From: Escherichia coli | GTDB lineage: Bacteria > Pseudomonadota > Gammaproteobacteria > Enterobacterales > Enterobacteriaceae | NCBI RefSeq assembly: GCF_003334255.1 | Contig: NZ_QOWU01000011.1 | Direction: 5' to 3' (one strand) | Length of the DNA: 64,000 nucleotides | Part shown: positions 5,030-58,284 of the stretch, in pieces | How positions within the stretch are numbered: position 1 is the stretch's first letter | Layout: each line of letters opens with the position of its first letter | Translations under genes and position numbers: made by a program | Notes under the pieces: generated by a model | The model's database searches: none | What the model was told of the DNA's origin: nothing | What the model saw: only the letters and a program-made list of their open reading frames with translations

Positions 5030-5398
5030 AATAAAAAAAGGGAGCACTGTATTCACAGCGCTCCCGGTTCGTTTCGCAGCATTCCAGCTACTTTTGTTGC
5101 TCCCTGCTCATCCTTGACAACTTTTCCTCTGGCCTTGCGGCCAATCGTTCATCCTGAACTATTGCTTCCTGCTCACACCACCCCGATGTGATACTTCATC
5201 CTGAAGTGTCCCTGGCCTTCCTGACCCACCGAATCATCCTGACCGGTTCTCATTCTCCATCCTGGAGGTGTCCTTTAACGCGTCCTGCGTCATCCTCTTC
5301 GCTTCATCCAGAAGCCTTTCCCTGAAACACCATCCTGGTGTGTCCTGCAGAAGTGTCATCATCCTGATGTTCACTTCGTTGTCTGACTCCCTGTCGAC
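5030..5398 (-). ncRNA. csrB: CsrB small RNA (CsrA-sequestering), about 369 nt
   Basis: Plus strand carries about 9 copies of catcctg (reverse complement of CAGGAUG) plus further GGA variants at irregular spacing in 5100-5370; 5' end reads GUCGACAGGGAGUCAGACAACGAAG on the minus strand; ends with hairpin GGGAGCGCUGUGAAUACAGUGCUCCC plus U7 (plus-strand 5030-5066); no ORF. Confidence 0.85.
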
Positions 5399-23559: not shown

Positions 23560-23775
23560 TAGTGGCGGCACTTCCTGAGCCGGAACGAAAAGTTTTATCG
23601 GAATGCGTGTTCTGGTGAACTTTTGGCTTACGGTTGTGATGTTGTGTTGTTGTGTTTGCAATTGGTCTGCGATTCAGACCATGGTAGCAAAGCTACCTTT
23701 TTTCACTTCCTGTACATTTACCCTGTCTGTCCATAGTGATTAATGTAGCACCGCCTAATTGCGGTGCTTTTTTTT
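23560..23775 (+). ncRNA. gcvB: GcvB small RNA (Hfq-dependent regulator of amino-acid/peptide transporters)
   Basis: ACUUCCUGAGCCGGAACGAAAAGUUUUAUCGG..., GU-rich stretch GUUGUGAUGUUGUGUUGUUGUGUUUGCA, internal terminator GUAGCAAAGCUACCUUUUUU and final terminator GCACCGCCUAAUUGCGGUGC plus U8. Confidence 0.85.
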
Positions 23776-26739: not shown

Positions 26740-26919
26740 GAGGTTATCCCTCACCCTAAACGCATAAATGCCTGATGCGCTACGCTTATCAGGCCTACAT
26801 AACTCCTGCAATATTTTGGATTTGCATGATTTGTAGGCCGGATAAGGCGTTCACGCCGCATCCGGCATGAACAACGCGCACTTAGTCAATAATCAGGATG
26901 TGAGGTTACCCCTCACCCT
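26740..26919. repeat. REP pair (BIME-like) flanked by 18 bp direct repeat
   Basis: REP gcctgatgcgctacgcttatcaggcctac (26770-26798) and inverted REP gtaggccggataaggcgttcacgccgcatccggc (26833-26866); flanks gaggttatccctcaccct (26740-26757) and gaggttacccctcaccct (26902-26919). Confidence 0.6.
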
Positions 26920-26954: not shown

Positions 26955-28052
26955 TCAGCCGCTAAAGACGTTACCTGCGCCCGGGGCGGTTTTCAGCACC
27001 CAGACACGTCCATAGTGGTTGTACCAACCTGCGCGGTGTCCGGCTTCCGGCCCGATCCCTTGATAGATATCGAAGTGTTGGCCTTTGATTGCACCACCGA
27101 CATCCAGCGCCACCATCAGACGCAGTTCGTACTGACCATTAAATTTGCCGTTATTATCCAGCAACGGCACTTCTGCCAGCAAGGTAGTACCTGGCGGAAT
27201 AATGGAACGATCAGAGGCAACTGACGCGCGACCAACCAGCGGCACCGCACTTGCCCCTTTCACCGGAGCAAAAGATTGCGGTTTAAAGAAGACGAAAGAC
27301 GGGTTCTGTTCCAGCAGCTCGCGAACCTCGGCTTCACTGTGTGTTTCGCCCCAGTGACGAATCGCCTGCATCGACATATCTTCTTTTTTCACTTCGCCAC
27401 GGTCGATCAGCACCTTACCAATGCTGCGATAGGCATGACCGTTTTTCCCTGCATAGCTGAAAAAGTTAAGCGGACTGCCATCACCAAAGTCGATATACCC
27501 ACTACCCTGCACATCCATAATGAAGTTATCCATCAGGGAGTTACTGTAAGCGAGAATATATTTATCACTCAATGCCCCCGCGTAGATCTCCGCACGAGAC
27601 GGCAGACGACCACGTTTTGGCGGCATACGGTAAATAGGATACTGGAACTCGCCCTGGCGGGTATGGCGCGCCTGAATTACCGGCGTGTAATAACCGGTAA
27701 ACTGCACGTTACCATAGTTGTCGGCACCTTCCATCTGCCAGGCATCAATGCCGAACTGGCGCATATTGCGGGTATCACCGCCTGCGCGCAGCCACTCTTG
27801 CACCGCGTTATAAACATTACTCTGGTTGCCATACAGACGCGGTGACGAATTACGGATATGGTTAATTTGCTCGGCAAAATCACCGGCGTTAATCGGCGCG
27901 CCAACGGCATCTGGCTGGTTCACCAGAGAGAAAGGCTGGGTAAATTTCCCGTCTTTATATTGCTGTCCGCGATCGGTTGGTTTGGAAGAGCAGGCGGCAA
28001 GCATTGCCACAACCGTGCCCATAAGAAGGTACTTTACCCAACGTCCTTTCAT
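26955..28052 (-). CDS. mltA: Membrane-bound lytic murein transglycosylase A (lipoprotein)
   Basis: ORF 26955..28481 trimmed to MKGRWVKYLLMGTVVAMLAACSSKPTDRG (365 aa); lipobox LAACSS. Confidence 0.9.
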   Translation of the reverse strand: MKGRWVKYLLMGTVVAMLAACSSKPTDRGQQYKDGKFTQPFSLVNQPDAVGAPINAGDFAEQINHIRNSSPRLYGNQSNVYNAVQEWLRAGGDTRNMRQFGIDAWQMEGADNYGNVQFTGYYTPVIQARHTRQGEFQYPIYRMPPKRGRLPSRAEIYAGALSDKYILAYSNSLMDNFIMDVQGSGYIDFGDGSPLNFFSYAGKNGHAYRSIGKVLIDRGEVKKEDMSMQAIRHWGETHSEAEVRELLEQNPSFVFFKPQSFAPVKGASAVPLVGRASVASDRSIIPPGTTLLAEVPLLDNNGKFNGQYELRLMVALDVGGAIKGQHFDIYQGIGPEAGHRAGWYNHYGRVWVLKTAPGAGNVFSG

Positions 28053-28219
28053 TGTTCTCTTCTTCAGGTTAAAAAATAAGGCGCAACGAAGATAACAAAC
28101 CGCCGCGTTTAATGAAATGAGCAGCCTCTCCCTGACGCAAATTTTGCACAAAAAATAGGCTTTAGTGATTTGTTTTTGTTCAAAATCATGCCAAATCCGT
28201 GATCGGGGTAAAAAAAAGG

Positions 28220-28247
28220 TTGCATGAAAACGCGAGCGGAGTATAGT
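28220..28247 (+). promoter_or_regulatory. sigma70 promoter for the tRNA-fMet gene (-35 ttgcat, 16 bp spacer, -10 tatagt) with upstream A-tract
   Basis: Hexamers read directly; -10 ends 13 nt before the mature tRNA 5' end. Confidence 0.55.
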
Positions 28248-28260
28248 GCGCATCCACGGA

Positions 28261-28337
<77 letters not shown>

Positions 28338-29895: not shown

Positions 29896-31227
29896 GTGGT
29901 AAAGGAACGTAAAACCGAGTTGGTCGAGGGATTCCGCCATTCGGTTCCCTATATCAATACCCACCGGGGAAAAACGTTTGTCATCATGCTCGGCGGTGAA
30001 GCCATTGAGCATGAGAATTTCTCCAGTATCGTTAATGATATCGGGTTGTTGCACAGCCTCGGCATCCGTCTGGTGGTGGTCTATGGCGCACGTCCGCAGA
30101 TCGACGCAAATCTGGCTGCGCATCACCACGAACCGCTGTATCACAAGAATATACGTGTGACCGACGCCAAAACACTGGAACTGGTGAAGCAGGCTGCGGG
30201 AACATTGCAACTGGATATTACTGCTCGCCTGTCGATGAGTCTCAATAACACGCCGCTGCAGGGCGCGCATATCAACGTCGTCAGTGGCAATTTTATTATT
30301 GCCCAGCCGCTGGGCGTCGATGACGGCGTGGATTACTGCCATAGCGGGCGTATCCGGCGGATTGATGAAGACGCGATCCATCGTCAACTGGACAGCGGTG
30401 CAATAGTGCTAATGGGGCCGGTCGCTGTTTCAGTCACTGGCGAGAGCTTTAACCTGACCTCGGAAGAGATTGCCACTCAACTGGCCATCAAACTGAAAGC
30501 TGAAAAGATGATTGGTTTTTGCTCTTCCCAGGGCGTCACTAATGACGACGGTGATATTGTCTCCGAACTTTTCCCTAACGAAGCGCAAGCGCGGGTAGAA
30601 GCCCAGGAAGAGAAAGGCGATTACAACTCCGGTACGGTGCGCTTTTTGCGTGGCGCAGTGAAAGCCTGCCGCAGCGGCGTGCGTCGCTGTCATTTAATCA
30701 GTTATCAGGAAGATGGCGCGCTGTTGCAAGAGTTGTTCTCACGCGACGGTATCGGTACGCAGATTGTGATGGAAAGCGCCGAGCAGATTCGTCGCGCAAC
30801 AATCAACGATATTGGCGGTATTCTGGAGTTGATTCGCCCACTGGAGCAGCAAGGTATTCTGGTACGCCGTTCTCGCGAGCAGCTGGAGATGGAAATCGAC
30901 AAATTCACCATTATTCAGCGCGATAACACGACTATTGCCTGCGCCGCGCTCTATCCGTTCCCGGAAGAGAAGATTGGGGAAATGGCCTGTGTGGCAGTTC
31001 ACCCGGATTACCGCAGTTCATCAAGGGGTGAAGTTCTGCTGGAACGCATTGCCGCTCAGGCGAAGCAGAGCGGCTTAAGCAAATTGTTTGTGCTGACCAC
31101 GCGCAGTATTCACTGGTTCCAGGAACGTGGATTTACCCCAGTGGATATTGATTTACTGCCCGAGAGCAAAAAGCAGTTGTACAACTACCAGCGTAAATCC
31201 AAAGTGTTGATGGCGGATTTAGGGTAA
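29896..31227 (+). CDS. argA: N-acetylglutamate synthase
   Basis: ORF 29830..31227 trimmed to GTG 29896 ([26 protein letters not shown]..., 443 aa) with AGAGG RBS; C-terminal GNAT region. Confidence 0.85.
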
Positions 31228-53322: not shown

Positions 53323-56689
<3,367 letters not shown>

Positions 56690-56755
56690 TCAGTAAAAGC
56701 GAATGGAGGGAGATTACACGAGATAAAGAACGCGAGCGACAGTAAATTAGGTGCG

Positions 56756-56843
56756 AAAAAAAACCTGCGCATCCGCGCAGGTTGGTGCAAGAGACAGGGT
56801 ACGAAGAGCGTACCGAATAATCTCACCAATCAATACCTCTGGG
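56756..56843 (-). ncRNA. omrA: OmrA small RNA (Hfq-dependent, OmpR-regulated)
   Basis: Minus strand reads CCCAGAGGUAUUGAUUGGUGAGAUUAUUCGGUACGCUCUUCGUACCCUGUCUCUUGCACCAACCUGCGCGGAUGCGCAGG plus U8. Confidence 0.85.
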
Positions 56844-56957
56844 ATCTTGATTGTGGTCTGCACGACGACTCTTCGCCAGCGAGAAAACGCAAAGGAATGA
56901 AGGGAAATGCAACGAGGTGTGTAAATTGTCGGTTACTGTTACAGATTGATGACCGGC

Positions 56958-57039
56958 AAAAAAAACCTGCGCATCTGCGCAGGCTGGTGTAATTCATGTG
57001 CTCAACCCGAAGTTGACTTCACCTATCAATACCTCTGGG
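56958..57039 (-). ncRNA. omrB: OmrB small RNA (paralog of OmrA)
   Basis: Minus strand reads CCCAGAGGUAUUGAUAGGUGAAGUCAACUUCGGGUUGAGCACAUGAAUUACACCAGCCUGCGCAGAUGCGCAGG plus U8; same 5' end and terminator as OmrA. Confidence 0.85.
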
Positions 57040-57252
57040 ATCACCACTTTAGCAACCTGAAGCCAAACGCCACCAGCGGTCAATCGCAACAGCGTTTCGC
57101 AAAGTGTAACCAAAGGTTTGCAATCTCTTTTTTTGTCTTACTTATTTGCGTTTGGCTCACATTCCCACGATGAAAACACGCCACCCCTTGAACCAACGGG
57201 CGTTTTCCGTAACACTGAAAGAATGTAAGCGTTTACCCACTAAGGTATTTTC

Positions 57253-58284
57253 ATGGCGACCATAAAGGATGTAGCCCGACTGGCAGGCGTTTCAGTCGCC
57301 ACCGTTTCCCGCGTCATTAATAATTCACCCAAAGCCAGCGAAGCTTCCCGGCTGGCTGTGCATAGTGCAATGGAGTCTCTTAGCTATCACCCGAACGCCA
57401 ACGCCCGTGCGCTGGCGCAGCAGACCACTGAAACGGTCGGTCTGGTCGTTGGTGATGTTTCCGATCCGTTTTTCGGTGCAATGGTGAAAGCGGTCGAACA
57501 GGTGGCTTATCACACCGGTAATTTTTTATTGATTGGCAACGGTTACCACAACGAACAAAAAGAGCGTCAGGCCATTGAGCAACTGATCCGCCATCGCTGT
57601 GCTGCGTTGGTCGTCCATGCCAAAATGATCCCGGATGCTGATTTAGCCTCATTAATGAAACAAATGCCCGGTATGGTGCTGATCAACCGTATCCTGCCTG
57701 GCTTTGAAAACCGTTGTATTGCTCTGGACGATCGTTACGGTGCCTGGCTGGCAACGCGTCATTTAATTCAGCAAGGTCATACCCGCATTGGTTATCTGTG
57801 CTCTAACCACTCTATTTCTGACGCCGAAGATCGTCTGCAAGGGTATTACGATGCCCTTGCTGAAAGTGGTATTGCGGCCAATGACCGGCTGGTGACATTT
57901 GGCGAACCAGACGAAAGCGGCGGCGAACAGGCAATGACCGAGCTTTTGGGACGAGGAAGAAATTTCACTGCGGTAGCCTGTTATAACGATTCAATGGCGG
58001 CGGGTGCGATGGGCGTTCTCAATGATAATGGTATTGATGTACCGGGTGAGATTTCGTTAATTGGCTTTGATGATGTGCTGGTGTCACGCTATGTGCGTCC
58101 GCGCCTGACCACCGTGCGTTACCCAATCGTGACGATGGCGACCCAGGCTGCCGAACTGGCTTTGGCGCTGGCGGATAATCGCCCTCTCCCGGAAATCACT
58201 AATGTCTTTAGTCCGACGCTGGTACGTCGTCATTCAGTGTCAACTCCGTCGCTGGAGGCAAGTCATCATGCAACCAGCGACTAA
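57253..58284 (+). CDS. galR: LacI-family galactose repressor
   Basis: 343 aa ORF MATIKDVARLAGVSVATVSRVINNSPKASEASR... (LacI HTH). Confidence 0.9.
   Translation: MATIKDVARLAGVSVATVSRVINNSPKASEASRLAVHSAMESLSYHPNANARALAQQTTETVGLVVGDVSDPFFGAMVKAVEQVAYHTGNFLLIGNGYHNEQKERQAIEQLIRHRCAALVVHAKMIPDADLASLMKQMPGMVLINRILPGFENRCIALDDRYGAWLATRHLIQQGHTRIGYLCSNHSISDAEDRLQGYYDALAESGIAANDRLVTFGEPDESGGEQAMTELLGRGRNFTAVACYNDSMAAGAMGVLNDNGIDVPGEISLIGFDDVLVSRYVRPRLTTVRYPIVTMATQAAELALALADNRPLPEITNVFSPTLVRRHSVSTPSLEASHHATSD

Follow-up and report, generated by a model that had tools for sequence, protein, structure and literature searches.

The locus

Two small RNA (sRNA) genes lie side by side on the minus strand of the window (the whole 64,000-nt stretch of Escherichia coli DNA that was analysed), and they raise the question of why two neighbouring genes should be the same at both ends and unlike in the middle, and what such ends mean for the stability of the pair. 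Rfam cmscan of the whole window at the gathering threshold gave two full-length minus-strand matches to OmrA-B (RF00079; gathering threshold 40 bits, with the score over the full model as criterion). The downstream copy, adjoining aas, is omrA (b4444, formerly rygA; 88 nt; 56756-56843), with 96.6 bits, E 6e-18 and model positions 1-87 of 87, and the upstream copy, adjoining galR, is omrB (b4445, formerly rygB; 82 nt; 56958-57039), with 86.1 bits, E 2e-15 and the full model. Both are members of RF00079, as each spans the full model and neither match is truncated. In the curated K-12 record NC_000913.3, omrA and omrB are annotated as ncRNAs on identical bases, between aas and galR. The window contains 1701 nt of this record verbatim, which fixes both genes at the limits given above, and the window copies are 100% identical to those of K-12 MG1655. 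The PGAP-annotated MG1655 record gives no sRNAs at the omrA/omrB locus. An Rfam search had been set beforehand as the refuting test for the initial annotation, which named the known sRNAs OmrA and OmrB; with RF00079 matched twice and the annotated limits exact to the base, the naming stands, and so does the claim of two tandem minus-strand sRNA genes. Their spacing is 196 nt from 5′ end to 5′ end and 202 nt from 3′ end to 3′ end, with an intergenic gap of 114 nt.

The conserved flanks are aas on the downstream side (54509-56668, minus strand) and the divergently oriented galR on the upstream side (57253-58284, plus strand), both assigned from ORFs, annotation and synteny in other Enterobacterales; the same layout recurs in Citrobacter, Enterobacter, Kosakonia, Kluyvera, Pluralibacter and E. 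albertii. Of 5426 complete E. coli genomes, 5424 contain the 701-nt omrAB region, 5327 of them at an identity of at least 99%. In the same collection, two matches to the aas-omrAB-galR region were on records labelled plasmid, and at least one genome had the region in two places.

It is nearly certain that the locus consists of omrA and omrB, two independently transcribed, OmpR-activated and Hfq-dependent sRNAs that arose by tandem duplication, to which recurrent deletion can now be added. The genes and their modular structure are already known from a literature that runs from 2001 to 2026.

Identical ends and divergent cores

The two genes start with an exact 15-nt prefix (CCCAGAGGTATTGAT), and 20 of their first 21 nt are identical, which confirms the identical 5′ seed that had been proposed; the conserved 5′ end CCCAGAGGUAUUGAU is exact in both window copies. 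The 15-mer occurs at two places only within the window, both in omr genes, at a chance expectation of ~1e-4. Identity starts at -3 (GAT), which extends the prefix to an 18-nt perfect direct repeat (GAT + CCCAGAGGTATTGAT, -3 to +15) at 56829-56846 in omrA and 57025-57042 in omrB, both on the minus strand. These repeats hold the seed and form the two arms of a 196-nt deletion, as judged from alignments, predicted pairing and the natural deletion junctions described below.

At the 3′ end, the last 18 nt are identical and the last 35 nt agree at 32 positions. The terminator scan detected a 9-bp G+C-rich hairpin followed by a T-run in both genes, at 56762-56783 and 56964-56985, in line with the near-identical terminators of the initial annotation. 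The Rho-independent terminator of omrA (56756-56783, minus strand) has a 9-bp stem, a GGAT loop and a U8 tail, and that of omrB (56958-56985, minus strand) has a 9-bp stem, an AGAT loop and a U8 tail; both are backed by the terminator scan, helix covariation and deletion junctions (of the A29 type for omrA). The last 18 nt of the omrA terminator are one arm of a 202-nt deletion, and the omrB terminator provides the other.

Between these ends, the central 29-35 nt are unalignable, as the claim of a differing centre requires, and 59 of 88 alignment columns are identical overall, in agreement with the published identity of 68%. The divergent centre holds a hairpin specific to each gene: GGTACG...CGTACC in omrA (56798-56814, minus strand), found by folding and as a stem in the terminator scan, and TCAACT...GGTTGA in omrB (57002-57016, minus strand), found by folding. 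The folds of OmrA and OmrB beat shuffled controls (z-scores -2.7 and -2.9); nt 1-15 are unpaired in the OmrA fold, and some seed nucleotides are paired in the minimum-energy fold of OmrB. The lengths of 88 and 82 nt, and the identical ends with a divergent centre, have been described before (PMC12692685 and PMC13425233).

Promoters of omrA and omrB

The -10 hexamer of omrA is CACAAT (-12 to -7; 56850-56855, minus strand), with -12C, and that of omrB is TAAAGT (-12 to -7; 57046-57051, minus strand), with -12T; the positions were computed, CCACAAT being conserved in 23 PomrA-class promoters and the omrB hexamer within the PomrB class. The two hexamers agree with the published -12C/-12T determinant, according to which omrA is sigma-S dependent via -12C and omrB has -12T (review PMC12692685). 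OmpR-P activates both omr promoters in vitro, and an omrA template covering -114 to +50 was activated by OmpR-P, with -60 to +50 as the non-OmpR-regulated control (PMC5175337). Multicopy RstA activates omrB specifically (PMC13425233).

Further upstream, conservation in the 23 promoters outlines an activator region for omrA (56876-56943, minus strand) with TGTAACAG at -100 to -93, GTTGCA at -70 to -65, TTTGCG at -50 to -45 and GCTGG at -37 to -33. The corresponding region of omrB (57073-57110, minus strand), outlined by conservation in 29 PomrB-class promoters, has GTTACA at -71 to -66, GTTGCG at -51 to -46 and GCTGG at -38 to -34.

Taken whole, the two E. coli promoters are marginally similar. 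Their best ungapped 40-nt window has 24/40 identities; one shuffle in 1000 reached as many, and so did the best of 112 unrelated control segments of the window. Their local alignment (match +2, mismatch -3) scored 14 against a shuffle mean of 13.9. When the profiles of the 23 PomrA-class and 29 PomrB-class promoters were compared, 18 of 24 doubly conserved positions were identical at a 1-nt offset (-1), against 2-10 at the other offsets tested. The boxes common to both are GTTrCA at -70/-71, TTGCG 20 bp downstream in each (-49/-50) and CTGG at about -36, and PomrA has the additional conserved TGTAACAG at -100. The common boxes resemble what we take to be OmpR half-sites, and are offered as a lead only. 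A reading in which the promoters share no homology was considered and dropped: the ungapped scan is marginal, and the profile comparison gives 18/24 in the conserved boxes.

Two expectations of the initial annotation thus hold in part. An alignment of the upstream regions was expected to reveal shared OmpR boxes; conserved common boxes are there, the whole promoters are marginal, and the OmpR boxes are candidates. The pair had also been called a clean case of local duplication and divergence; the tandem duplication stands and "clean" is a simplification, as the duplicated unit is in essence the transcript with a few short promoter boxes.

Predicted pairing with targets

Using RNAduplex, nt 1-9 of OmrA/B were predicted to form 9-bp duplexes with ompR at -18 to -10 (-19.4 kcal/mol) and with ompT at +12 to +20 (-19.9 kcal/mol). 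Both are within the strongest 2.4% when set against 41 background leaders from the window, and both beat at least 99% of shuffled seeds. The ompT site, which was predicted blind, is the experimentally validated site of PMC2588501. For cirA, also a validated target, the duplex has -15.9 kcal/mol, and 24% of the background leaders score as low by duplex energy alone. Both sRNAs are bound by Hfq. Compensatory mutations have established that their 5′ end mediates the repression of ompT, cirA and ompR-envZ, and this repression depends on Hfq and RNase E (PMC2588501).

An AsompR antisense RNA is annotated opposite the start and leader of ompR (NC_000913.3 3536438-3536775; L123 439-776) and covers the segment that pairs with OmrA/B. 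Within the window, ATCAATACC at about 29953-29961 (plus strand), inside the argA coding sequence, is a perfect complement of OmrA/B nt 7-15; its duplex (-20.8 kcal/mol) is the strongest of the 41 background leaders, the leader in question having been called from an internal ATG. This complement is probably a chance match.

Homologues in Enterobacterales and the identical ends

An exact-match scan with the 15-mer, using one genome per species, gave at least 120 stretches. Outside Enterobacterales, those among the matches listed were mostly chance 15-mer matches, none with a full-length nhmmer match, and no Salmonella, Klebsiella or Yersinia locus was among the 15-mer matches listed. From the matches listed, we assembled 71 copies from about 45 Enterobacterales genomes. 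As the loci were retrieved with the exact seed 15-mer, an invariant seed is in part built into this set; in two-copy loci the second copy could vary freely, and it has the exact 15-mer in all but one case. The 15-nt 5′ end is exact in both copies of 24 of 25 tabulated two-copy genomes, the exception being Erwinia endophytica with one substitution in one copy.

Across the 71 copies the ends are kept and the core varies in sequence and length. The GGUG/CACC stem is invariant, and the terminator helix is 99.9% paired in the 66 distinct sequences, with three compensatory pairs (UA/CG, GC/AU and CG/UA); its covariation score was reached by no shuffle, and the slid controls collapse. Folding predicts a core hairpin of at most -3 kcal/mol for 63 of the 71 copies despite their differing sequences, and all 15 seed nt are unpaired in the minimum-energy fold of only 25 of the 71.

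The identical ends could be kept alike by separate purifying selection on each gene or by ongoing gene conversion between the tandem copies (concerted evolution). The few variable positions at the ends bear on this choice. At column 16, T prevails among the downstream copies (19 of 25) and A among the upstream ones (17 of 25), with a similar split at columns 81 and 95, and in the 25 two-copy genomes a copy differs in its end regions by 4.56 positions from its own paralogue and by 3.7-3.8 from same-type copies of other genomes. These positions track gene type rather than genome, and thus the ends look like products of selection on each gene rather than passive remnants. In addition, the two terminators within one genome are clearly unlike in the Enterobacter cloacae group and in Pantoea. 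Concerted evolution would find its best examples in Serratia grimesii and both Edwardsiella species, where the compensatory terminator stem CCTACGC/GCGTAGG is present in both copies and the ends differ at 1-2 positions, and in Mangrovibacter and Pluralibacter, whose paralogues differ at one end position; moreover, the natural deletion junctions demonstrate that the omr repeats are able to recombine. The states common to both copies in Edwardsiella and Serratia fit independent duplications equally well, however, because the cores there classify as neither A nor B. We therefore regard gene conversion as an unlikely general cause of the identical ends. Judged from these comparisons, purifying selection on each gene would mostly explain them, with homogenisation or independent duplication possible in Edwardsiella, Serratia grimesii, Mangrovibacter and Pluralibacter.

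Some loci in this set have arrangements of their own. Pantoea and Erwinia have two OmrA-B genes about 2 kb apart; in P. stewartii (L030 200-5010), a gene for an FtsI-like protein (a PBP3 paralogue; 687 bits, below the subfamily cutoff of 737 bits) lies between the omr copies, and a gene for a BisC-family S/N-oxide reductase lies between galR and the first omr copy. Both tandem copies of Mangrovibacter yixingensis (L092 1699-1986) are B-like in the core, with one end difference, and the downstream copy has a promoter unlike both PomrA and PomrB; a recent re-duplication could account for the pair, as could conversion.

Collapse of the pair within E. coli

Precise omr deletions of 196 or 202 nt are present in 16 of the 5426 complete E. 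coli genomes, and these 16 make up most of the 18 genomes that cover less than 80% of the 701-nt query. The 196-nt class was searched with an artificial junction joining PomrB (-40 to -1) to OmrA (1 to 45), which normal genomes match in two pieces; nine complete E. coli genomes match it as a single piece at 100%. Their galR-aas spacer is 388 nt, against 584 nt in normal genomes, and that of EC21Z-137 equals the in-silico 196-nt deletion with 0 differences. For the 202-nt class, the query ran from the omrB body through its terminator into the sequence that flanks omrA downstream, and it was matched as a single piece at 100% in seven further genomes, which have omrB alone and a spacer of 382 nt, the crossover lying in the last identical 18 nt. 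In one representative genome of either class, Rfam detected a single OmrA-B gene, scoring the same as K-12 OmrA and K-12 OmrB, respectively.

Over the 1200 nt compared, several haplotypes can be told apart in the flanks of the collapsed genomes, with a divergence of up to about 2-3%. The class with the 5′ crossover is on two flank haplotypes and the class with the 3′ crossover on four; since neither product can be derived from the other, these amount to at least six independent events. For the two 5′-class groups that were checked, normal two-copy genomes with 99.9% identical flanks exist. The PomrA::OmrB junction, the marker of a triplication by unequal crossing-over, had no single-piece match among the matches listed.

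As assemblers sometimes collapse tandem repeats, and as deposited assemblies rather than reads were used, the single-copy alleles might be artefacts of assembly. We consider this very improbable. The units are alike over 18-35 nt at their ends only, with 114-nt spacers and unalignable cores, which leaves little to collapse, and the 16 records, all of them complete genomes, come from different laboratories. Close relatives isolated from different sources have the same allele (Rb-23, 1002W03 and TUM14697; PE164 and E105), both junctions are those of the in-silico deletion products (0 and 3 differences), and both collapsed architectures are fixed in other genera.

It is somewhat more likely than not that the 18-nt repeats, kept identical by selection, make omrAB a recurrent deletion hotspot with at least six collapses, which would also explain why PomrB is retained. 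A limited literature search, which included papers on OmrA/B, found no earlier description of omrAB collapse.

Single-copy loci in other species

Both collapsed architectures are also seen outside E. coli. A PomrB-like promoter in front of an A-type transcript was identified in Lelliottia, Superficieibacter, Enterobacter sp. BIGb0383 and MGH24, and Pseudescherichia vulneris, and OmrB alone in Shimwellia and Pseudocitrobacter. In Enterobacter sp. BIGb0383 (L027 5962-8853), about 2.8 kb separate the chimeric omr gene from aas, which indicates an insertion there.

It has been reported that single-copy species keep the omrB promoter, a pattern given without a mechanism (PMC13425233). Whenever a segment is deleted between direct repeats, the upstream promoter is bound to stay, and thus PomrB is the one retained. 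The E. coli junctions place the collapse at the 5′ or the 3′ direct repeats, and deletion at these repeats would explain the published pattern. There is one exception: Siccibacter colletis (L080 3940-4460) has a single A-type omr gene with a PomrA-like promoter and no PomrB boxes up to galR, and on its sequence it departs from the reported retention of the omrB promoter.

Other features of the window

Three other sRNAs were detected by Rfam at the gathering threshold: CsrB (5030-5389, minus strand; 380 bits), GcvB (23570-23775, plus strand; 199 bits) and ES036/CssrF (26791-26833, minus strand; 46.5 bits). The initiator tRNA-Met (CAT) at 28261-28337 (plus strand; upstream region 28040-28260) is present as a single copy, whereas NC_000913.3 has three tandem copies (metZ, metW and metV) with a 110-nt period. 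The window is thus 220 nt shorter at this point and not strictly collinear with the MG1655 reference, and the mapping of K-12 coordinates is valid only from the tRNA-Met site onward. Two copies are present in the best-matching complete genomes among the matches listed; like omrAB, this tandem array differs in copy number between genomes.

Discussion

Small proteins encoded by the omr repeats, as the GTG/TTG-initiated minus-strand ORFs of 38 and 39 codons that span omrA and omrB (56747-56863 and 56994-57113) and have the peptide IPEVLIGE in common might suggest, have next to no chance of being the explanation and were rejected, because that peptide merely follows from the common nucleotides, 1- and 2-nt core indels among homologues would shift the frame (omrA has 88 nt in E. 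coli and 87 nt in Citrobacter werkmanii), and the homologues are conserved in the manner of RNA helices, with compensatory changes.

In the model that fits best, the 5′ end of OmrA/B (nt 1 to about 21) pairs with the translation-initiation regions of targets such as ompT, cirA and ompR-envZ and represses them, and repression of ompR closes a negative feedback loop on the activator of the sRNAs themselves. The variable core hairpin, which differs between the paralogues, may give each its own targets, and the common Rho-independent terminator with its U-tail would, going by its sequence, serve as the 3′ module to which Hfq usually binds. Divergence has also reached the promoters (-12C and sigma-S for omrA, -12T for omrB), and thus the same seed is deployed under different signals. 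The 18-nt perfect repeats at both ends would also be the substrates for precise deletions that leave one gene under the omrB promoter. Gene identity, module boundaries, terminator covariation, conserved boxes and in-silico pairing come from the present analysis; control by OmpR, RpoS and RstA, the dependence on Hfq and RNase E, and target repression come from the literature.

For the known pair itself there is nothing new here, and the recombination result is a modest extension that will concern specialists. OmrA in the chimera would be driven by the omrB promoter instead of its own, sigma-S-dependent one (-12C), a natural rewiring of sRNA input, and deletion between short conserved ends would be a mechanism by which sibling sRNAs are lost or fused. 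The constraint that preserves the seed and the terminator would then carry a cost in genetic stability. Natural strains with OmrA under the omrB promoter, or without omrA, are material for separating the contributions of paralogues and promoters.

Set against the single-copy and chimeric omr loci of other Enterobacteriaceae (PMC13425233), the window has the two-gene form, and E. coli has both of the other architectures as well, as rare alleles. Set against K-12 omrA/omrB (RF00079), the window is the same in sequence, coordinates, strand, flanking genes and lengths, with no difference. PrrF1 and PrrF2 of Pseudomonas aeruginosa are likewise adjacent, same-strand, duplicated base-pairing sRNAs with overlapping regulons, and they differ from OmrA/B in family, regulator (Fur) and sequence. 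Compared with PrrF1/PrrF2, OmrA and OmrB are distinguished by the conservation of the ends only and by promoters that have diverged.
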